The position numbers and the translations under genes were made by a program. Below the pieces are notes generated by a model that made no database searches, was not told where the DNA came from, and saw only the letters and a list, made by a program, of their open reading frames with translations. Shown here piece by piece: positions 2,646-36,464 of a stretch of DNA of 38,660 bases; positions within the stretch are counted from its first letter, which is position 1, and every line of letters starts with the position of its first letter. The stretch is from the IMG/VR virus record IMGVR_UViG_3300003375_000062, positions 1 to 38,660 of that record; one strand, written 5' to 3'. This DNA is from a virus. Lineage: Duplodnaviria; Caudoviricetes.

Positions 2646-2699
2646 GCTATACCCATTACAGGCACAACACTATTCAATCTACTTACAAGATGACCTGTT

Positions 2700-3130
2700 A
2701 TAGTGGTAATTGGCAACCACTTGCGGAAGGGACGGTACCCCGTCAGGAACGCAAAAATATGAGCGCATCATCCGCTCGACCGGGAAGTATCGACTGTCCT
2801 TATGGTGAAAATATCTCCAGTCCGAGCCCGGTATAGTCTGACCAAGTAAAGGAATAGGTCATCAAAATCATCGCGCTATGTGAAGCATAGCATACTAACG
2901 GATCGCTCTATCTACCATTGATAACGATCAAGAGCATGCAAGGTTGATCGGTTCCCTTGTGTGTTTTCCGCTGCTGAACATTGAGTTCAGGATGTGCATG
3001 TGATGCTGGTACCGGGCAACCGCCAGCGATTTAAAAAAAAATCAAGCATGAAAACTGGTCTGTGATTACTGCCTGTACGCAGAGTTTTTCATAAAACATT
3101 CTCCTTCGCTAACGCGAGGGAGATATGGTC
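2700..3130 (+). ncRNA. Candidate large structured non-coding RNA, family unassigned
   Basis: ORF-free gap with about ten consecutive hairpins, G-U pairs and a GCAA tetraloop on the + strand; extended -10 element TGnTATAGT at 2696-2704. Confidence 0.6.
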
Positions 3131-3242
3131 TATGAACCCAACCAACCGCAAAAGTCCTAGAAGAAGAAAGATATCTGCATCACAGGCAACAGTATCTTAT
3201 AATCAACTCACGCAAGATCGCCCAAACTATCAGGAGATACAT

Positions 3243-4457
3243 ATGTTACCCACACAAAAAATCGCAGTAATTGGTTCAGGAATCGCTGGTATAACAGCAG
3301 CCTATCAGCTAGCCCGCAGAGGACACAGCGTAACTGTCTTTGACAAGGAACGATACCCCGCAATGATGACCAGCTATGCCAATGGAGGGCAGCTGAGCGT
3401 GTGCAATAGCCAAACATGGAACACCTGGAGCAACATGGCCAAGGCAATGGCATGGCTCTTCAAGAAAGACGCTCCTTTGTACATCAGTCCCTCCATGGAT
3501 CTTGATAAGATACAATGGCTATATCACTTTTTCGTCACCACCGCCAGGGGTCAATTTGAAAAAAATACCGCAGAGACCATTCGCCTAGGATTGGCCAGCC
3601 GCTGGGAGCTGCTTGAAATAGCAGCAACAGAAAACATAAGTTTTGATCATGTAAGCAAGGGCATACTGCACATTTATACCAACCGCAAGAGCTTCACCTC
3701 CGCGTTTGACAGCGAGCGCATCATGCTCGCAAATGGCTGCGAGTGGCACATAATAAACCCGCAGGAGTGCATGCGCCTAGAACCATCATTGTCTAATCAA
3801 CCTGCATTGATAGGTGGTGTTTACACCAAAAGTGACAGCACGGGCGATATACACATGTTTGTTAATTCACTTGCTGATGTGTTGCAAAGGAAATACAACG
3901 TGGCCTTTTGTTTTGACCACGATGCAAATGATGTCAATGTAAGTGATCACGGGGTTGTCATCAAGGACACCGCGTTTGACAGGGTGGTGGTGGCTGCCGG
4001 TGTGCAGAGCCGAATGCTCAGCAAGAAGTTTGGCGATAATTTTCCAATCTATCCTGTCAAGGGTTACAGCATAACGGTTTACCTGCTTGATGATCGCAGC
4101 CGCGCCGCTGCCCCTTGGGTGAGCCTGTTGGATGAGGATGCAAAAATAGTCAGTTCCAGGTTAGGACCAAATCGCCTCAGGGTGGCAGGTACGGCTGAAC
4201 TATCAGGTTATAACCTTGATATCAAGCAGGAAAGGCTACAGCCGTTGCTCAACTGGACTCGCAATTGGTTTCCGGATATAGATACCAGATCATATCGTCC
4301 ATGGGCCGGTTTGCGACCAATGATGCCCAACATGATGCCCATCGTTGGCCCGGGCAAACATCCCCGCGTATGGTATCATACCGGTCATGGACATTTGGGT
4401 TGGACCCTATCGGCAGGTACCAGCGTGGATCTCGCAAACATGATGGAAAACGGTTGA
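3243..4457 (+). CDS. dadA: D-amino acid dehydrogenase (FAD-dependent)
   Basis: IAVIGSGIAGITAAY, TSYANGGQLS, IYPVKGYS, WAGLRPM, GHGHLGWTLS; AGGAG RBS at 3232-3236. Confidence 0.9.
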   Translation: MLPTQKIAVIGSGIAGITAAYQLARRGHSVTVFDKERYPAMMTSYANGGQLSVCNSQTWNTWSNMAKAMAWLFKKDAPLYISPSMDLDKIQWLYHFFVTTARGQFEKNTAETIRLGLASRWELLEIAATENISFDHVSKGILHIYTNRKSFTSAFDSERIMLANGCEWHIINPQECMRLEPSLSNQPALIGGVYTKSDSTGDIHMFVNSLADVLQRKYNVAFCFDHDANDVNVSDHGVVIKDTAFDRVVVAAGVQSRMLSKKFGDNFPIYPVKGYSITVYLLDDRSRAAAPWVSLLDEDAKIVSSRLGPNRLRVAGTAELSGYNLDIKQERLQPLLNWTRNWFPDIDTRSYRPWAGLRPMMPNMMPIVGPGKHPRVWYHTGHGHLGWTLSAGTSVDLANMMENG

Positions 4458-16252: not shown

Positions 16253-16309
16253 TATCTTGCTATCAACCGATAGCAAAGCTAACATGATATATTGCCAGGA
16301 GACACAAGA

Positions 16310-17995
16310 ATGTATATCGATGCCTTTTTAGAACGAGAAAAAAATCAAATCCTGGTTGTTGAAAGAAACAAAGCTGGTAAGCGTATATTCAACGTCCATA
16401 ATACCAAGTATTCTGTTTATTGGCCGGGACCACGTGGAAAGATACCAAACATACATGGAAATCTCTGCGAAAAATTCCAAACAAGCAAGCTAAAGGAATT
16501 TACTCGAGAGATCAACATGCTGCCTAAAAACAGCTTGCATGAGAGTGATATCAATCCTATTTTCCGTTGTTTGTATGATAATTATAAGAATGCCCCGTCA
16601 CCTGAGCTACACGTTGGGTTCTTCGATATTGAGGTGGACTTTGACCCTTTGCGGGGTTTCTCAAGTCCAGACGATGCGTTTTCACCAATCACCGCCATTT
16701 CAGTATATTTGGCATGGATGCAACGCAATTTCACTATGGTTATCAAACCAAAAGGAATGTCGCAGGAAACAGCTGAAGAGATCGTTGCAAAATTTGAAGA
16801 CACCGTGCTTTGCGAAAGCGAAAAAGAATTACTGGAAATATTCCTTGATCTGATAGATGATGTGGATATTTTAAGCGGATGGAATTCAGAAGGCTTTGAT
16901 ATACCCTACATCCACAACAGAATCGTGCAGGTATTGGGTAAGGAAGAAACCCGTAGATTGTGTTTATGGGGCAAGTTTCCCAAGCGTAGGGAATATGAGG
17001 CGTATGGAAGAGAAACCATAACCTACGATTTGGTAGGACGCATACACATGGATTACCTACAGCTTTATCGCAAGCACACATACCATGAAATGCATAGTTA
17101 TCGCTTGGATTTCGTTGGCGAATACGAAGTTGGAGACAAGAAAACACACTATGAAGGTAGCCTAGATTCGTTATATAACAATGATTTTGAAAGATTTATC
17201 GAATATAACAGGCAGGACGTACTGCTGTTGGTTAAGATCGACGCAAAAAATAAGTTCATCGATCTTAGCAATAATCTTGCACATGAAAATTGTGTTCTGT
17301 TGGCCACCACAATGGGTGCAGTTGGTCTCATAGATCAGGCCATCGTAAATGAAGCATGGGATCTTGGTTTCATCGTACCAAATCGTAAAAGGGATGATTT
17401 CCGCAACGACTCCGGATCAAGTGATGACGATGATGAAGAGATAAACATAAACGGTGTGGTGGGTGCGTATGTTGCGGATCCAAAACCTGGTATGCATGAT
17501 TGGATTGGCGGTGTCGACATCAACAGCCTGTATCCTTCGGCAATCCGTGCCCTTAACATGAGTCCTGAAACGATTATTGGACACATACGGCCGGAAAGCA
17601 CTGACAAGCTTATTACCAAGCGCATGCGCGATGAAAAGAAAAGCTTTGCAGACGCATGGAACGGCATGTTTGGCACGCTTGAGTACAACCAGGTCATGAA
17701 CCAGGATCTAACGCCGGTTACGGTTGATTTTGAGGATGGATCGACCTCAACCGTATCCGCAAGTGAGCTTTACGATTACGTGTTCAACAGCAGTAAAAAG
17801 CTAACGCTGTCGGCAAACGGAACCATCTTCACCCTGGAAAAATCTGGTATCATTCCGGGACTGCTTGCACGCTGGTATGCCGAGCGCAAAGAACTACAGG
17901 CCAAAGCCAAAACTGTTAATAGCCTCATTGATGGTATAGAAATTCCACCAGAATTATTAGACAAGGTTCAAAAATTATTAAGCCAAACTAAATAA
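16310..17995 (+). CDS. polB: Family B DNA polymerase, N-terminal subunit (3'-5' exonuclease + motif A)
   Basis: FDIEVD, GWNSEGFDIPY, YNRQDV, GAYVADP, DINSLYPS; ends in the first fingers helix (WYAERKELQ) plus a short tail; AGGAG RBS. Confidence 0.92.
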   Translation: MYIDAFLEREKNQILVVERNKAGKRIFNVHNTKYSVYWPGPRGKIPNIHGNLCEKFQTSKLKEFTREINMLPKNSLHESDINPIFRCLYDNYKNAPSPELHVGFFDIEVDFDPLRGFSSPDDAFSPITAISVYLAWMQRNFTMVIKPKGMSQETAEEIVAKFEDTVLCESEKELLEIFLDLIDDVDILSGWNSEGFDIPYIHNRIVQVLGKEETRRLCLWGKFPKRREYEAYGRETITYDLVGRIHMDYLQLYRKHTYHEMHSYRLDFVGEYEVGDKKTHYEGSLDSLYNNDFERFIEYNRQDVLLLVKIDAKNKFIDLSNNLAHENCVLLATTMGAVGLIDQAIVNEAWDLGFIVPNRKRDDFRNDSGSSDDDDEEININGVVGAYVADPKPGMHDWIGGVDINSLYPSAIRALNMSPETIIGHIRPESTDKLITKRMRDEKKSFADAWNGMFGTLEYNQVMNQDLTPVTVDFEDGSTSTVSASELYDYVFNSSKKLTLSANGTIFTLEKSGIIPGLLARWYAERKELQAKAKTVNSLIDGIEIPPELLDKVQKLLSQTK

Positions 17996-18017: not shown

Positions 18018-19220
18018 ATGAATATACATGAAATAGAATTGGTATTATATAACAATAAAAATATACGGTCGCAATTACATTTACAGAGATATTTTAAATT
18101 AATAAAATACTATCAAAATAATGCTTGTATAAAAGTAAAAGGGTCAAATGGTGCATATGAGAGACATCATATTTTACCAAGGAAATTATATCCTGAATAT
18201 AAAAATTCCAAATGGAATATAATAGTGTTACCGACAAAAGCACATTATTTGGCTCATTATTTTTTATATAAGGCGCTAAGTGACAAATCTTGTGTATATG
18301 CTTTTAATCAAATGCGTAGAATATCCAAAAAGAATGGTAAAACTAATTGCAGATTGTATGAATCTGTTAGAAAAGAGTTTGCAAAACTAATTAGTGAAAA
18401 TAATACGGGCAAAGAAGTAAGTGAATCGGCAAGACTCGTATTAAGTAACCGTCATAAAAATACAAACACTTATAGAAATAAAACAACAGGTGAATTAAAC
18501 AGGCTTACAGTAGGACAACAGCCAGATGGATGGGAACCATTTCAAACGGGTAGAATACGAACTACAGATTCAAAGAATAAAATACGGCAAGCAATGTCAG
18601 GTAGAATGTGGCAATTTAATAAAGAAACAAAAGAAGTAAGACTGGAAAAAGAGTTATTACCGGGTTTTACTTTGGGATATCCAGACTGGTATGATAATGG
18701 CTCTGAGCTAATAAAAGGATATGTTTGGATACACAATCCAGAAACAAAGGTTCATTATAGAATACCAAAAAATGACCAGATACCAGATGGATTTGTGATA
18801 GGAAGAAGTTACAACAATGTAGGATTTGCTAAAATTAATCAGTCAAACTTGTTGCGGTTGATCGATTTATCAACAAAATGTTTTGTTATAATTGATAAAA
18901 AAGATTTTGACCCAAAATTACATCTGAAAACAGGTCAAAGTCTAGAAAAAACATTTGTTTATGATTATAAAAATACTGTATATTTATCATATTGTGACTT
19001 AATAAACGCTTGTCCCGAAATTCCACAGGTTGGCAAACGTAACGACAGTCTAAATCATCTGACAGTTCCAAAACCGCATTACAATATGAAAGAGGCACGA
19101 AAAGAATTTTGCGCAATAAATGTAGGAAAAACTATGAATCAAATTGGACTAAAAGTTATAAAAATAGCAGACTATGTATATGATAGGAGGACCATTTATG
19201 TTAGATGCAACAGTGATTAA
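18018..19220 (+). CDS. Free-standing HNH homing endonuclease inside the polymerase locus
   Basis: ERHHILPR...NIIVLPTKAHYLAH; AT-rich; own TAAATA (17989-17994) and GGAGG RBS. Confidence 0.85.
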   Translation: MNIHEIELVLYNNKNIRSQLHLQRYFKLIKYYQNNACIKVKGSNGAYERHHILPRKLYPEYKNSKWNIIVLPTKAHYLAHYFLYKALSDKSCVYAFNQMRRISKKNGKTNCRLYESVRKEFAKLISENNTGKEVSESARLVLSNRHKNTNTYRNKTTGELNRLTVGQQPDGWEPFQTGRIRTTDSKNKIRQAMSGRMWQFNKETKEVRLEKELLPGFTLGYPDWYDNGSELIKGYVWIHNPETKVHYRIPKNDQIPDGFVIGRSYNNVGFAKINQSNLLRLIDLSTKCFVIIDKKDFDPKLHLKTGQSLEKTFVYDYKNTVYLSYCDLINACPEIPQVGKRNDSLNHLTVPKPHYNMKEARKEFCAINVGKTMNQIGLKVIKIADYVYDRRTIYVRCNSD

Positions 19221-20689
19221 TCAGGCTATACAGTCTGGTGATGCTGAAACACTTGCTACACTGATTAAGGAACAAAATTTAGAAATAAAAGATGGCAAAG
19301 TTGTTGCTGGCCCCAAGATAGTAAAACAATCTTTTGATTTTTGGGATCAACGCCAATTGATTAAGAAAATTCTACTAAATTCGTAAATATTGCGACGTGA
19401 ACAGGTAACTGTTTAATGAAAACCGCTCTAATTGCTGGAAACTCCTTGATAAGGACAATCAGCAGCCAAGCATCGAAAGATGAAGGTTCAACGACTAGGT
19501 TGAAAGACCGTAGATCCAAGTGGATCGAAACGGGCGGCATCCAATTTAGTTGGATGGTGATATAGTCTCCTCTGCATGGTAACATGCAGCAGCACGTAAT
19601 GGTGCGGAATATGGCTTAACGAGCATATTTGAAGATTTGGTATATGGTGCACTAGGCAACCCTGGGTCAAGGTTCTTCGATGCAAGAGTAGCACAAAGCA
19701 CTACACTAAGCGGACGCTGCATCGTGAAGCATATGTGTAGTAAGATAAACGAAATTATCACAGGTGATTATGATTATAAAGGAATAGCATCAATTTACTC
19801 TGATACTGACTCGAATTATTTCTCTGCTTATCCTGTCATGAAAGATCTTCCAGAATTCAAGGACTTTGAGTGGACCAAGGAAAACGTAACCGATCTATAT
19901 GATAAGATTGGCGACATGACCAACGCAAGCTTTCCTGAGTTCATGAAGAAAGCATTTAACTGTCCGGAAAAAAACGGAGCCATAATCAGTGCAGCACGCG
20001 AGCTTTGTGCAATCAAAGGATTGTTTATCAAAAAGAAAAGATATGCCGTGCTTATCTATGATAAGGAAGGCAAGCGCAAGGATACAAACGGTAAAAAAGG
20101 CGAAATCAAAGCAATGGGGCTTGACCTCAAACGCAGTGATACACCAAAGATCGTACAGGAATTCCTCAGTGATATCCTGGTTGATGTGCTCACCGGGGCA
20201 AACGAAGCTGACATCCAAACAAAGGTGTTGGAATTCAGAAAGGAATTCCGCAGCTGGCCAGGGTGGTTGAAAGGTTCTCCAAAACGAGCAAACAAGATAA
20301 CCTATTATGAAGGCATCTTGAATTCTCAAACAACAATGGATTGGAAAACTCCTTCCAGTGCTAAAAAAACAATACCTGGTCATGTTCTGGCCAGCATAAA
20401 CTGGAATAGATTGAAAAAGATATATAACGATCACTATAGCATGCCTATCCAAGACGGATTCAAGGTTATCGTATGCAAACTACGCCCTAATCCCAGCGGA
20501 TTAACATCGGTTGCGTACCCAGTGGACGAAATGACCCTTCCACAATGGTTTAAGGATCTGCCGTTTGATGACGAAACGATGGAAGAAGTGCTGATAGACC
20601 AAAAAGTCAAAAATTTGCTTGGTGTTCTTAATTGGGATCTTGATGCAAACAAAAATGCCAATAGTTTTGGCGATCTATTCAGTTTTTAA
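19198..20689 (+). CDS. polB: Family B DNA polymerase, C-terminal subunit; join(19198..19384,19641..20689), 411 aa
   Basis: AGGAGG-ATG at 19198. Splicing restores motif B KKILLNS-L-YGAL. Motif C YSDTDS, KKKRYA and MGLDLKRSD follow. Confidence 0.9.
19385..19640 (+). mobile_element. Group I self-splicing intron, ORF-less (IA2-like)
   Basis: P1 UCGU|A...UGCGA with U-G at the 5' splice site. Core: P AATTGCTGGAAA (19430), Q AATCAGCAG (19457), R GTTCAACGACTA (19486), S GATATAGTC (19559), P3 CCGCTC/GGGCGG. Terminal G 19640; removal gives an in-frame T+TA Leu codon. Confidence 0.92.
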
Positions 20690-23586: not shown

Positions 23587-23629
23587 ATGATTTATGTTAC
23601 CTTCGTTAAATAAATCGGAGGTAACCAAC

Positions 23630-24433
23630 ATGTATTACATTTATGCACTGATTGATCCGCAAAACTACCAATATTTCTATATTGGGAAAGGAAAAAGAAA
23701 GAACAACCGACATTTGGATCATTTGCGTGAAAAACACGGAAAGATTAATCCATTAAAATGGCATCGAATTCAAAAAATTCGATCATTGGGTATGGATGTA
23801 TTGTTTGAAGTTATTATTGACAATATTCTCGATGAGAACATAGCTTACGATGAAGAAACTCGGCTAATTAAATTATACGGTAAAATTGTTGACGGAACCG
23901 GAATACTCACTAATATTATAGATGATGCTAAACCTCCGTCTTGGAAAGGGCGTGTTAAGTCAGAAGAGCATCGTAAAAACTTGTCTAAAGCACACCTCGG
24001 TAAAAAGCTCAGTCAAGAAACTATTGATAAAATCCGCGCAACAAAATTGACTAATGGAACACTTGTATCTAATGGAATGACCGGAAAAACTCACTCCGAC
24101 GAAACTAAAGAAAAAATTCGACTACGGAAAATAGGTACCATTATGTCACAAGAAAGTAGTTTGAAGAAAAGTGAAAAAACAAAAGGGCGAACTTGGTCTG
24201 AAGAAAGACGTCTAGCAGCTATGAATGGTAAAAAGACTGGGCCAAAAAGTAAAACTTGGTCCGAGGCTAGAAGAGCTGCTCATAATAAATGCAAAAGTAA
24301 GGAAGATAAACCAAATGACAACAAATCCGACAGTTTAAATGATGTACACGACGTTTCAAAAAAAGATGGATCCACAAGTATCCAGAAGCACTTAACTGAT
24401 ACGATGATTATCAAGGAGACCGACTATGAATAA
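23630..24433 (+). CDS. GIY-YIG homing endonuclease with NUMOD3 repeats
   Basis: YYIYAL...FYIGKG..R, KSEEHRKNLS, HSDETKEKI; TAAATA at 23607 and GGAGG RBS. Confidence 0.9.
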   Translation: MYYIYALIDPQNYQYFYIGKGKRKNNRHLDHLREKHGKINPLKWHRIQKIRSLGMDVLFEVIIDNILDENIAYDEETRLIKLYGKIVDGTGILTNIIDDAKPPSWKGRVKSEEHRKNLSKAHLGKKLSQETIDKIRATKLTNGTLVSNGMTGKTHSDETKEKIRLRKIGTIMSQESSLKKSEKTKGRTWSEERRLAAMNGKKTGPKSKTWSEARRAAHNKCKSKEDKPNDNKSDSLNDVHDVSKKDGSTSIQKHLTDTMIIKETDYE

Positions 24434-24803
24434 GAAAACATTTGTCTATTGCACATTCCAGAAAGAGGCTTATCACAAGTTCCCAGGGGCCGATACAAAT
24501 CCCAAATATGCAACTGGCGATGAGTATGATGTAAGCCATCTTGGATTTAGGCATATGCACTACTTCAATTTTAAGGTGTGGGTTCAAGTGACCCACGAAA
24601 ATCGTCAAATTGAGTTCATACAAATGCGGAGATGGATCGAGAATCTTTACTCAAAAGGTATCCTTGAGCTTGATAATCAAAGTTGCGAGATGATGAGTGA
24701 TGCCTTGTATGAAAAACTTATCGATCGCTATCCTGGCATGGAGATTAAAATAGATATTAGCGAGGAAGGCATTAACGGTTCGTATACCGAATATCAACCC
24801 TGA
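24426..24803 (+). CDS. QueD-like T-fold protein (DpdL-like)
   Basis: LGFRHMHYF (cf. LxxxHRHxF), IEFIQ, SCEM, ISEEGING; AAGGAG RBS inside the endonuclease 3' end. Confidence 0.7.
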   Translation: MNKKTFVYCTFQKEAYHKFPGADTNPKYATGDEYDVSHLGFRHMHYFNFKVWVQVTHENRQIEFIQMRRWIENLYSKGILELDNQSCEMMSDALYEKLIDRYPGMEIKIDISEEGINGSYTEYQP

Positions 24804-25782
24804 TATTGTGTTTTGAAAGCCAACTAGGGTTGTATAAGTTGTTGGCTTTTGATCCACCATACGTTGTAAATAAGAACAACGCAGTATCGACTCTGCCTCC
24901 TGTAAACACCTTCAGACCGTCTTTATAAATCTCATAAATCTTGCTATTTTTCTTTCCAGATTTACTCCTTGCATCTTTCAATCTACAAACTGTTTCGCTA
25001 TCATACAGCTCTTCGTATGTTTTTCCTTTCATTTTCTTGCTGGGATTATTTTGTTTTAGTTGTGTTGATCTTTTTAATTTGATTTGGTTGGATTTCTCTA
25101 TGCCATATATCTCTTCATAAGATTTACCGGCGTTTTTGTTTGGTGTTGACTTTCCTTTTAACATACTACCTTGATGAAATCCGGTGGGAGGTAATTCACT
25201 AGGTTGTAGTCTTATATTAGAAATGCCGTTTGTATATACAATCCAACCTCTATTATTAGTATTAGCATTAAATGATTCAATTATATTGTTGATATGCTTT
25301 GAAGATTTTTTCTTGCCTTTTAGAGCTGCTGAAACTTTTTGTCCGTGTCCTTTTGGTTTTTTGGGTCCCTTCAGTTCTCCAAGACCTAAAGATACTATTA
25401 CTTTCGCAAATGCAGTCTCCATCCATTTATATTGGTTAAAAGAATATACATACACAAGCTTCCTTCCAAGCAATGGGTGTTGTCTTGAATCAAACGTAAC
25501 TCCATAGCTGTTATTCAACCATTTTGGATTATCTATAACTTTCATCCGGCGTAGAACTTTATCTTCCCACATTCTCGCATCTTTACCTGATTTAAATATT
25601 TTTCGAACTTTGTAATCAAATGAATCCTTACCCAATAATTCTATTCTTTTGGCTATCTGCACAGAGCTTGTAAAATACTTGACCCATAATTCAGACGGAT
25701 GGCATCCACGGGCGTACCTTACGCCATAGTATACTTCTCCAGTTGGTATGCATTTGATCAAATATGTATATGGGGTTGTCAT
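24772..25782 (-). CDS. GIY-YIG-type homing endonuclease with NUMOD-like repeats
   Basis: PYTYLIK...YYGVRYA...YFTSS...WEDKVL; repeated GK(S/T)YEE(I/L)Y; AT-rich; TAAATA on the minus strand at 25813-25818. Confidence 0.85.
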   Translation of the reverse strand: MTTPYTYLIKCIPTGEVYYGVRYARGCHPSELWVKYFTSSVQIAKRIELLGKDSFDYKVRKIFKSGKDARMWEDKVLRRMKVIDNPKWLNNSYGVTFDSRQHPLLGRKLVYVYSFNQYKWMETAFAKVIVSLGLGELKGPKKPKGHGQKVSAALKGKKKSSKHINNIIESFNANTNNRGWIVYTNGISNIRLQPSELPPTGFHQGSMLKGKSTPNKNAGKSYEEIYGIEKSNQIKLKRSTQLKQNNPSKKMKGKTYEELYDSETVCRLKDARSKSGKKNSKIYEIYKDGLKVFTGGRVDTALFLFTTYGGSKANNLYNPSWLSKHNIRVDIRYTNR

Positions 25783-25974
25783 CACATTCTCTTGGTTATG
25801 TCCATCGTCATATATTTATCTTGACAATACCATTAATTTCTTCACATCATAGTATGATACAGTAAGATTTATAAAATTAAAACAAAATTTAATGTCGACA
25901 CACAACTAGTTGAATAACAAAGGTATAAGTGTCAACTGCACCAACTGCACCGATTGTGCAGTTGAGCTAATGCT

Positions 25975-34305: not shown

Positions 34306-34543
34306 TCTAGCAGAAGAATCCTTATTTGTTTTGTGGGATCGCCTCAATCATGACGAAATGCAAGAAAGGATCAACTGGTTGCGAGAAAATTTAGCAGCAG
34401 GCACTGATTGGGGATTTTGCGGCGAACGAAGAACACTGGTACTGACGAACAAATCTTCCAAATTTCTATACAAGATGAGATGGTTTGAGCCAGGTCAACA
34501 GACTTTGGCAACTGATATCAAGATTGGTATGGATGACGAGTGA
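34295..34543 (+). CDS. Hypothetical protein
   Basis: GGAGG RBS, overlapping start. Confidence 0.6.
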   Translation: MMNDLAEESLFVLWDRLNHDEMQERINWLRENLAAGTDWGFCGERRTLVLTNKSSKFLYKMRWFEPGQQTLATDIKIGMDDE

Positions 34544-34607
34544 AGTTGACGATCGCGATCTGCTGCAACAAACTACTATAAAGAAACAGATTAAGGATTT
34601 TTTTTCT

Positions 34608-36464
34608 ATGTTTGGACATAACCAAATTGTTGGTGAAAAGTATTTTAAGGATGCTGGCGAGAAACTGTTTGTAACCAGCATCTTCTATACCTTGCAGGGG
34701 GAAGGCCCTTATCGTGGTGAGCCGGCAGTGTTTGTGAGGCTCGCCAAATGCAATCTCAACTGCTCGTTTTGTTTTGTACCGTCTACTCCCATTCTAATGG
34801 GAGACGGCACGACAAAAAACATAGTTGATGTTCAAGTAGGCGATATGGTTATGTCGTGGAACGGAACACAATATCTACCGAAACCTGTCATTCGAAAATA
34901 TGAAAGTATAGCCAACCGTATCATGAAGGTTGAGGCTGGTGCCCGTAAATTTTGGGTAACTCCGGAACATCCGTTCCTCACTTCAAACAGAGGATGGGTT
35001 GATGCACAAGATCTCACACAGGGTGATATACTTGTTCATTTCAGTGTAAGTGATCGCATGAGCATGTTCAATCCAGTTCTCCAAGATGGGTTTCTTCGCA
35101 AACCTCTTTCGCCAGATGCTGCACAAAAAGCTCGAGAAAATCTTATCAAGCTGTGGAAAGATCCAGAGTTTAGAGCCGCTAATACTGCTAGAATGATTGA
35201 CAGCAATCCAATGAAAGACCCTGCGGTCGCTGCAAAAGGATTCATTTCAAGAACACATCATAAGAAAAGTGGAGTTGAACTCCGTTTTGAAAAAATATGT
35301 GAAGGGCTTCCGATCACTTATATAGGTGACGGAAGCGGCGAAACTATTGCACATCGCATACCAGATTTTATTGTCGACGGGCAAAAGAAAGTAATTGAAA
35401 TTTGGGCTGCTGATGCAGACTTTGCTAAAGACAGAGATGACACGTGGGTTGCTAATCGACGCAAACTTTTTGAAAAGAATGGGTACGAAACCATGTTCCT
35501 CCCGTTGATGCCAACTGATCTGAGAAGTGATAATCATCAACGTCTCAGAGAGAAAGTTGCATCGTTTGTCCACAACGGTATAGTAATCACCAAAGTTTCC
35601 GAGGTAAAGGATGGTAGAGGATTTGCTCGCCTGTATGGATCAAAGACTGCTGAACGAACCGTTTATAACTTAGAGGTAGAGGATACCCACACATACCTTG
35701 CCAATAACTGTGTAGTTCATAATTGCGACACCTTCTTCGATGACGGTGACTGGCTCACCATCGAGGAGATTGATGCTCGCATTGAGAAAACCATTTCAGA
35801 CTACTTTGAAGGAGATGTTCCGCTTTGGGCCCGCGAACTGTGGGGTGGAGTTGGCGTGGAAGGCGATGCTGGTCCACAAGTACCACTTAAGAAAAGAGAA
35901 ATGGTGCTGGTGGTCACCGGTGGCGAGCCCATGCTGCAAAAGAATCTTGTGCCCTTCCTGGAGTATATGAACAAACGATTTGACAAGACTCAGATCGAGA
36001 GCAATGGTACCATTGTGCAAAACATTCCCGCAGAAACCACATTGGTAGTAAGCCCCAAGTGCAGTGAAAAACACGGTGTGGCAATCAAATATCTGGAGCC
36101 AAGACCAGAGATGCTGGCCCGCGCCAACTGCCTCAAATTCGTGATGAGCGCGGATGCTGAGTCGCCGTACAGTGTGGTACCAGACTGGGCGCTGGCATGG
36201 CGTCAACAAACTTCAAACCCTGTGTTTGTTAGTCCGATGAACATTTATAATTCTGAGCCACAAAAAAGCAAGCAGCTACGGGCAAATACCAACCAGATTA
36301 CCTTGGCAGAGCGCAGCACGGTCGACGAGGTAATTTCCTTTTGGGAAGAAGGATTGCTGAACATGCCTGAGAACCAGAAAAATCATGAATACACTGCTAG
36401 ATTCTGTGCAAAACACGGATTGATCTTGAATTTACAGATCCATCTCTATGCAAGTCTGGCCTAA
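34608..36464 (+). CDS. queE: 7-carboxy-7-deazaguanine synthase (radical SAM) with an intein
   Basis: SIFYTLQGEG...VFVRLAKCNLNCSF[intein]CDT, VTGGEPMLQ, IESNG, VSPK, LQIH. Confidence 0.92.
   Translation: MFGHNQIVGEKYFKDAGEKLFVTSIFYTLQGEGPYRGEPAVFVRLAKCNLNCSFCFVPSTPILMGDGTTKNIVDVQVGDMVMSWNGTQYLPKPVIRKYESIANRIMKVEAGARKFWVTPEHPFLTSNRGWVDAQDLTQGDILVHFSVSDRMSMFNPVLQDGFLRKPLSPDAAQKARENLIKLWKDPEFRAANTARMIDSNPMKDPAVAAKGFISRTHHKKSGVELRFEKICEGLPITYIGDGSGETIAHRIPDFIVDGQKKVIEIWAADADFAKDRDDTWVANRRKLFEKNGYETMFLPLMPTDLRSDNHQRLREKVASFVHNGIVITKVSEVKDGRGFARLYGSKTAERTVYNLEVEDTHTYLANNCVVHNCDTFFDDGDWLTIEEIDARIEKTISDYFEGDVPLWARELWGGVGVEGDAGPQVPLKKREMVLVVTGGEPMLQKNLVPFLEYMNKRFDKTQIESNGTIVQNIPAETTLVVSPKCSEKHGVAIKYLEPRPEMLARANCLKFVMSADAESPYSVVPDWALAWRQQTSNPVFVSPMNIYNSEPQKSKQLRANTNQITLAERSTVDEVISFWEEGLLNMPENQKNHEYTARFCAKHGLILNLQIHLYASLA
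34770..35723 (+). mobile_element. Intein (318 aa) with a Vsr/DUF559-like endonuclease domain
   Basis: Block A CFVPSTPILM, block B VTPEHPF, blocks F/G VYNLEVEDTHTYLANNCVVHN|C; internal IPDF...VIEIW...NGYETMF. Confidence 0.92.

Follow-up and report, generated by a model that had tools for sequence, protein, structure and literature searches.

A predicted class of large structured RNA in giant phages, with a pseudoknot core that recurs in sister RNA classes

Large phage RNAs and a new element

Large ornate RNAs are rare in bacteria and phages, and to our knowledge only a handful of classes exist. Those with a known function either are catalysts of ancient origin or belong to central machines. 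ColE1 RNA II is an R-loop origin transcript, which has its own promoter and no terminator. The origins of phage T4 depend on an unwinding element rich in A+T and on no particular RNA sequence, according to the accessible portion of PMC3016281. In the case of ROOL and GOLLD, the covarying kissing loops proved to be partly intermolecular (PMC12286853, accessible portion). In the catalogues of structured RNA candidates, the available part of Weinberg 2010 (PMC2864571) lists only a 141-position motif, Polynucleobacter-1, and that of Fremin 2023 (PMC10690425) lists candidates from IMG/VR of at most 151 nt.

The stretch of DNA analysed here (the window) is a virus record of 38,660 nt, with genes that include a ligase, a family B polymerase, UvdE and a deazaguanine cluster. 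On the evidence of sequence, it contains an element that represents a new, predicted class of ornate phage RNA; at least three classes, this one included, share a single core. A first-pass annotation had proposed a phage-encoded large non-coding RNA or ribozyme, possibly of an undescribed class, and homologues and covariation support a large structured non-coding element of a class absent from Rfam. In an Rfam cmscan no match was found at the gathering score for the element in the window, and the only hit at E up to 10 was a chance one to SNORD98 (E 8.8); for the homologues there was likewise no match, in 16 loci at the gathering score, in 8 loci at E up to 0.5, or in locus L511. Rfam 15 includes ROOL, GOLLD, OLE, raiA, RNase P, group I and II introns and riboswitches, and none of its models matched at the gathering score, unlike the real group I intron of the window (19375-19589), which Rfam detects. 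The claim that tRNA and tmRNA hallmarks are missing also held, as ARAGORN finds none in the window or in 31 loci.

The first homologue was reached by a protein search with the upstream gene, which led to a locus where the element is present at 74% identity. From four motif scans of IMG/VR and iterated profiles came 255 loci with 23 distinct copies, a metagenome scan covering 25 of 64 parts gave matches in 11 of 116 loci and brought the number to 32, the window included, and a third copy in genome G001 brought it to 33. All of these lie on viral or metagenomic contigs, and the 31 copies that were compared show pairwise identities of 44-98% (mean 56%). With queries from the window, from L199 and from the sister class, blastn gave no real match among 50,697 cultured-phage records; the core patterns occur in none of the four complete records of Melnitz, Phosso, XbC2 and PBECO4; and a pattern scan of GTDB gave 13 hits, none matching the element's model (R1) at E up to 1. 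The element was found nowhere described in the open literature, a scope that leaves subscription papers and bioRxiv supplements outside. Since the candidates in the available part of Fremin 2023 do not exceed 151 nt, the whole RNA is not among them, though fragments may be listed; six motif strings were absent from six of the nine supplementary files of that paper.

The nearest complete relative among the genomes compared is G001 (452,799 nt, CheckV 100%), to which the window has identities of 78% in the polymerase and 68% in the ligase. It encodes 43 tRNAs, two of them with CUA anticodons, and a two-piece tmRNA; such two-piece (permuted) tmRNA genes were observed in two complete giant phages (G001:111695-112033 and G007:287900-288233). 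Virion proteins beside other copies of the element have 30-35% identity to those of Sinorhizobium phage Phosso and of Asteriusvirus and Mimasvirus phages, and Atu_ph07, Phosso and Xoo-sp13 have matches to a small gene from the SbcC/baseplate locus. On account of these matches, which concern few genes, the carriers are probably giant phages of a wider group related to Atu_ph07, Phosso and PBECO4. Other features of the window were noted in passing. Its group I intron (+ strand, RF00028, 104 bits) splits the family B DNA polymerase (16292-17995 / 19637-20689) and goes with a homing-endonuclease ORF at 18018-19220. An intein-bearing radical SAM (QueE-like) gene occupies 34485-36464 (+), and the GTP cyclohydrolase I and PTPS genes near it form a 7-deazaguanine pathway cluster. 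A ferredoxin-dependent bilin reductase gene (194-841) and the D-amino acid dehydrogenase-like gene at 3243-4457 are unusual cargo for a giant phage, and two free-standing GIY-YIG-like endonuclease genes, with weak Pfam matches, lie at 23594-24433 (+) and 24772-25785 (-).

Extent and structure of the predicted RNA

The element is real and larger than first noted, extending from about 2678 to 3150 on the + strand as a predicted RNA of approximately 470 nt, with ends set by the promoter position and the limit of conservation. The original span of 2700-3130 does lie within it and missed about 20 conserved nucleotides at each end. Upstream, a GC-rich terminator-like hairpin (2608-2633) closes the preceding gene; the terminator reported ahead of the element is present as a hairpin, its terminator-like call being on the - strand only, and a hairpin with changed arms occupies the equivalent site in L001, L166 and L171. 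A predicted sigma-70-type promoter follows on the + strand (-35 at 2644-2649, -10 at 2666-2671) and is conserved upstream of the homologues. When the best sigma-70-type match within 60 nt upstream was sought in 28 copies, each against its own shuffles, the match began with TTG in 23 and scored above the shuffles in 26, and in 24 of the 28 its -10 ended 44-57 nt upstream of the GGAAGGG anchor. This position places the transcript start near 2678. The extended -10 previously read at 2696-2704 lies within the conserved RNA and is unconserved in the homologues, the promoter that is kept being some 30 nt further upstream. At the other end, conservation stops at about 3150 in a C/A-rich 3' tail (3129-3150, + strand); no terminator follows in the window or in most of the copies examined, and in several copies a separate promoter-like signal stands between the RNA and the next gene. 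From the promoter conservation and the G-U and compensatory patterns we infer that the element is transcribed.

There is no ORF of 50 aa or more between 2717 and 3131, in agreement with the ORF-free gap that had been recorded, and in the various copies the longest reading frame inside it has between 25 and 91 codons. Insertions, deletions and compensatory changes occur all along the alignment, and these fit an RNA and not a protein. The + strand of 2700-3130 folds with an MFE of -140.5 (z -3.53), and none of 100 shuffles folded equally well. The L001 homologue alone folds weakly (z -1.34), and for this reason folding energy is not the chief evidence for the element. This comes instead from a set of 27 full-length copies (A2), from which the truncated copies L242, L249, L283 and L305 and the near-duplicate L005 were excluded. 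Across this set, 79 named pairs are 93.5% standard, a value obtained for a structure chosen from the same sequences and including one off-register helix at 61.7% paired. Changes on both sides were found in 58 of the 79 pairs; none of 500 shuffles attained this, and slid controls reached only 35-39%. In an unbiased ranking by mutual information, the top 17 column pairs were all helix pairs, with 89-100% standard pairing. Covarying homologues therefore exist for the whole length of the element. Two short similar segments (3073-3084 and 3140-3150) were also seen to co-vary in the manner of a direct repeat, with high mutual information and no pairing.

The stems that had been read by eye were located in the sequence where they had been placed, and most are backed by covariation in the 27 copies. 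The 5' part begins with hairpin P1 (2702-2721, + strand like all that follow; 2702-2706 with 2717-2721), which had been overlooked together with four long-range pairings; it is paired in 100% of copies, with two-sided change in four of its five pairs. P2 (2723-2752, inner arm 2731-2744) is likewise 100% paired around an invariant 5x5 purine internal loop (2726-2730 / 2745-2749); of the stem previously drawn at 2721-2754 this core stands, whilst the outer pairs 2721:2754 (14/27) and 2722:2753 (8/27) are poorly held. P3 (2760-2778) contains the top-ranked covarying pair, 2761:2777. P4 (2780-2831) is formed by 2780-2784 with 2827-2831 and by an inner helix, 2792-2796 with 2818-2822, and its loop carries two tertiary contacts. 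P5 (2839-2861), hairpin P6 (2875-2891, with an invariant closing U-G) and P7 (2901-2929) are also supported by covariation, and are followed by hairpin P8 (2933-2965). The core shared with other RNAs (2968-3027) consists of an invariant CCGCU (2968-2972), P9 (2975-2989), P11 (3005-3010 with 3022-3027) and a pseudoknot between 2970-2974 and 3016-3020, and the final hairpin, P12, lies at 3103-3119; P9, the stem at 3005-3027 and P12 all covary. Two of the earlier stems did not survive. Within 3005-3027, the inner CGG-GCAA-CCG tetraloop stem has its pair 3015:3020 in only 12 of 27 copies, its loop bases pairing with 2970-2974 instead; and the stem proposed at 3048-3092 is paired in only 6/18 to 13/18 copies per position, 3054-3060 pairing with the P8 loop. 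A helix between 2997 and 3049, checked across the alignment, was unsupported.

Because variable loops align badly, long-range pairings were assessed by a cognate-partner test, which compares how well a loop pairs with the partner in its own copy and with those in other copies; its permutation ignores relatedness. Six long-range pairings pass, each with p=0.0002, and four unrelated control pairs, which share the weakness as to relatedness, fail (p 0.08-0.22). Two of the six had been foreseen in the first-pass annotation: the kissing loop of 2797-2801 in P4 with 2849-2853 in P5 (own partner better in 24/26, with a covarying pair at 2800:2850), and the pairing proposed between 2811 and 3119, which is formed by 2812-2818 with 3119-3125 (25/27). 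The others join the P7 loop 2915-2918 to 3125-3128 (20/27) and the P8 loop 2946-2952 to 3054-3060 (27/27), so that P8 and its partner span 2933-3060; a long-range helix of 2989-2995 with 3096-3102 (26/27) encloses the core hairpin; and the last is the core pseudoknot itself, paired at four positions in 27/27 copies, with an invariant C-A mismatch within it in all 27. The 3' end is engaged in three pairings as far as 3128. In the same test, two proposed pairings between the 5' and 3' ends, one of the P1 loop and the 3' tail (p=0.11) and one of the 5' leader and the 3' end (p=0.08), were unsupported, as was a pairing of the 2696 region with the 2864 junction (p=0.53). No kissing loop was found that is self-complementary and would thereby oblige molecules to pair with one another.

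Genomic setting and the shared core

In the window, the element stands directly upstream of a D-amino acid dehydrogenase-like (DadA) gene (3243-4457, + strand, its start placed from a 404-aa homologue in L001), which lies outside it. The same arrangement in L001 would suit a cis-regulatory leader or riboswitch of this gene. DadA, however, follows only these two of 32 copies; elsewhere the element is followed by ligase, methylase, PurM-like, virion or small unknown genes. In at least 7 of 31 loci the closest ORF call on the downstream side runs towards the element, and divergent arrangements also occur. As the neighbouring genes vary, and as several copies have a separate promoter-like signal before the next gene, a DadA leader is hardly credible and is largely refuted by gene context; a riboswitch or leader in general was rejected for want of a consistent same-strand downstream gene. 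No tRNA gene was found in 31 loci (flanks of up to 3 kb, some short), and the copies of G001 fall outside its tRNA cluster at 379-414 kb. G001 carries three intact copies (at 15 kb and 315 kb on the - strand and at 365 kb on the + strand) with 66-71% identity, which form one clade (98/97). G002 carries two, one on each strand; its site orthologous to the one before the ligase gene is empty and the RNA is found at two other places. In L166, a truncated 5' copy retains the old promoter and a full copy has a new, duplicated promoter and 5' part. A 216-aa gene that looks like GIY-YIG by eye, with no Pfam hit, was observed between the two (L166:3100-3990), and in L171 (3100-3270) this gene is absent and both RNA starts remain. 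The L166 duplication, which left a whole copy, suggests that the phage may need an intact RNA. The varied context, the multiple copies and the L166 duplication together argue that the element does not depend on the genes around it, that it duplicates and that it is maintained intact.

The hairpin-motif scan also returned RNAs that have only their 3' part in common with the element. The pseudoknot core of the 3' part (2970-2974 paired to 3016-3020) is found again, bearing compensating changes, in two further classes of large RNA, both of which sit at the SbcC/baseplate locus in phages of this group. The core pattern is estimated to match approximately 860 IMG/VR stretches, and among the matches listed, 120 loci, there are 101 distinct cores. 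In 98 of these 101, the base that follows the first block of the pattern, and so lies outside the search pattern, pairs with the middle base of the loop. The element itself contains both the core pseudoknot, in which CCGYUGY pairs with the GGUAC hairpin loop, and the upstream-loop pseudoknot. The abundant sister class (L373-L492, L042, L072) comprises RNAs of approximately 420-450 nt, the 5' third of which is Rfam Polynucleobacter-1 (RF01718) in 13 of 20 sister loci scanned (L072 and 12 of 19). In this class the upstream-loop pseudoknot covaries in the same place (p=0.0002, n=26), and the final hairpin is followed by GU(A/G)UG. The third class is represented by two examples at the SbcC/baseplate locus, G001:213180-213620 (-) and G002:224069-224471 (+), between which the core pseudoknot is fully compensated (AACG:CGTT against AGAA:TTCT). 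Model R1 aligned end to end with L042 (29.9 bits) and L381, and over the core only with 12 others, which had been preselected by the core pattern. Further sister subtypes without the Rfam domain appear to be present in L378/L381/L399/L412/L440, L042 and L045/L067, and the core of L067 (1478-1521) has a sub-threshold match to the alpha_tmRNA 3' end (18.3 bits against 50, E 0.037) that may be chance or a shared module.

Candidate relatives were also sought in cultured phages. PA5oct, a jumbo phage of the wider group, expresses four RNAs of 236-619 nt, ncRNA001-004 (PMC7318152, accessible portion). Segments of ncRNA004 are shared, by eye, with a non-coding stretch beside the Holliday-junction resolvase and SbcC genes. 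Well-folding non-coding stretches of 0.7-1 kb were observed at this resolvase/SbcC/baseplate locus in L543:4339-5354 (Phosso), L544:5009-5707 (Xoo-sp13) and L545:4900-5900 (Paride/PA5oct); the Phosso stretch adjoins RNase HI, and that of Paride partially matches three or four places per genome. The PA5oct RNAs and the Phosso, Xoo-sp13 and Paride gaps fold with z -2.3 to -5.4 (12 shuffles). The four PA5oct RNAs gave no match to either family profile at E up to 2, and in the RNAs and gaps taken together neither profile matches and the general core pattern finds no core.

The persistence of one core raises the possibility of a new large ribozyme, in which the nested pseudoknot core would be an active site for RNA cleavage or joining, at its own 3' end or on a substrate in trans. 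The invariant unpaired and mismatched bases are concentrated in the core (the C-A in 27/27, the U-G and a bulged AC), and the core is kept in three classes with differing peripheries. Conserved cores with differing peripheries are known from the group I intron subgroups and the RNase P types. Moreover, with no terminator the 3' end must arise in some other way. The element nonetheless interrupts no gene and has its own promoter, and is thus not an intron; it matches no Rfam ribozyme model; and no conserved cleavage-site context, guide segment or evident substrate was seen. The group I architecture has a P3/P7 pseudoknot, with the 5' strand of P7 between P6 and the 3' strand of P3. Here the would-be P7 strand, which follows the last hairpin, pairs instead with a loop (2915-2918) that lies 5' of the entire core, and on this ground and the absence of an interrupted gene a group I intron was rejected. 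We regard a new ribozyme as unlikely.

A selfish, non-autonomous mobile RNA or nuclease scaffold, comparable to HEARO or omega-RNA and served by a small GIY-YIG protein, would account for the variable sites and the lineage-specific gain of copies. It draws also on the sister class, in which the RNA lies downstream of or beside a short SegE-like GIY-YIG gene, within 1.5 kb, in 69 of the 73 loci with at least 1 kb of upstream DNA. No scanned flanking protein of the present class, however, is a short SegE-like protein; five carrier records have no match to one, and G001 has only longer matches of the homing type and no SegE beside its third-class RNA at the SbcC locus. In the sister class, other genes frequently separate SegE from the RNA, and Melnitz has a SegE-like protein without the core, so that the adjacency looks like shared gene order and not a cassette; an obligate SegE cassette was rejected for this class and is weakened for the sister class by the inserted genes. 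Neither a variable guide segment nor a target-site repeat was found, and a HEARO- or omega-RNA-like nuclease RNA was rejected for want of such a segment and of a fixed adjacent nuclease gene. Mobility of this kind we consider improbable.

Possible function and comparison with known systems

The preferred reading, to which a probability of only about 0.4 is attached, is that the element encodes a stand-alone, compact, trans-acting RNA that would work like ROOL and GOLLD whilst being neither. The host polymerase would transcribe a stand-alone RNA of approximately 470 nt from 2678, and its 3' end, as no terminator follows, is proposed to be set by trimming back to the folded body. The six long-range contacts would lock the 5' half onto the 3' half to give one compact body, with the core (2968-3027) as its working centre and the variable 5' half as a scaffold. 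Such an RNA would act in trans during infection and bind a partner from the phage or the host, or further copies of itself, and some of the kissing contacts may join separate molecules. Covariation along the whole length, a promoter at a fixed distance, varied flanks and intact paralogues count in favour of this reading. Against it, cis-acting origins or mobility would account for dispersed paralogues no less readily, catalysis would be just as compatible with an invariant core that has a fixed mismatch, no tRNA gene lies nearby, and the related SbcC-locus RNAs are set in origin-like surroundings.

These surroundings bear on a further explanation, that the RNA is a cis-acting origin primer: made from its promoter, it would leave a persistent 3' hybrid that is trimmed and extended by the phage polymerase, and several copies would mean several origins, as in T4. 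It has been reported that T4 uses no fewer than five dispersed origins and that two of these work via promoter-made R-loops (PMC3016281, accessible portion). The element resembles these in having its own promoter, no terminator and two or three dispersed copies per genome, along with a related RNA at the SbcC locus. The sister class, in addition, adjoins recombination genes and has short repeated DNA motifs (GAGCG-N-AGCGA-type) downstream in 76 of 86 cases. In this class the motif, which was defined on the sister set, occurs downstream in only 1 of 28, and this lack, together with the C/A-rich tail, argues against an origin role in cis. The downstream DNA is only 58% A+T (next 200 nt), the 3' end is paired until 3128 ahead of its C/A-rich tail, and the copies lie in both orientations, two on the - strand and one on the + in G001 and one on each in G002. 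The T4 origins, moreover, have no common local motif or R-loop sequence requirement in the accessible portion of PMC3016281, unlike the invariant core seen here. The cumulative GC skew of G001 has its minimum (314,310) beside the copy orthologous to that of the window; the third-position skew, however, keeps its sign on both strands along three genomes, so that the minimum is a gene-strand effect, and GC skew was rejected as origin evidence because it tracks gene strand. An origin primer is, on balance, unlikely.

Beyond the single class, giant phages of the group related to Atu_ph07, Phosso and PBECO4 may carry a superfamily of RNAs of 420-470 nt in which one pseudoknot core, as the active site of a new ribozyme or RNA machine, is combined with interchangeable outer domains. 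The superfamily would comprise at least three classes, with up to four genes per genome, and would be as standard in these phages as tmRNA; we consider this broad view possible, with the odds against it. The new class arrives with a structure model fixed by covariation, and the 15-year-old orphan motif Polynucleobacter-1 is linked through it to a larger and very common candidate superfamily with one core. The common core pinpoints 60 nucleotides for mutation, and because the RNA can be made in vitro, its fold, oligomer state, catalysis and origin activity are directly testable.

Amongst described systems, the R-loop origin transcripts of T4 (oriF and oriG) are similar in their own promoter, absence of a terminator and several dispersed copies, those of the element being in a T4-related giant phage; the element differs from them in its strongly conserved sequence and tertiary structure and in downstream DNA that is not notably A+T-rich. 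The Polynucleobacter-1 RNAs share with it the core pseudoknot, the loop-to-linker pseudoknot and the final hairpin with GU(A/G)UG. The element, by comparison, has no RF01718 match, its 5' half is made of different helices, its enclosing AGAU/AUCU helix is placed differently, and it is neither tied to the SegE/SbcC locus nor followed by the downstream DNA motifs of the sister class.

With regard to ROOL and GOLLD, whilst these are often near tRNA islands, no tRNA gene accompanies the element in 31 loci, and it is shorter, matches no Rfam model and occurs as several diverged copies per genome. ROOL and GOLLD form nanocages (PMC12286853, accessible portion); the element is predicted to fold into a compact particle. 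It is like them in being large (several hundred nucleotides), widely covarying and phage-encoded, with many kissing loops, several pseudoknots and no fixed protein partner, and its resemblance to GOLLD extends to a conserved 3' domain joined to an exchangeable or divergent 5' domain (PMC12286853, accessible portion).
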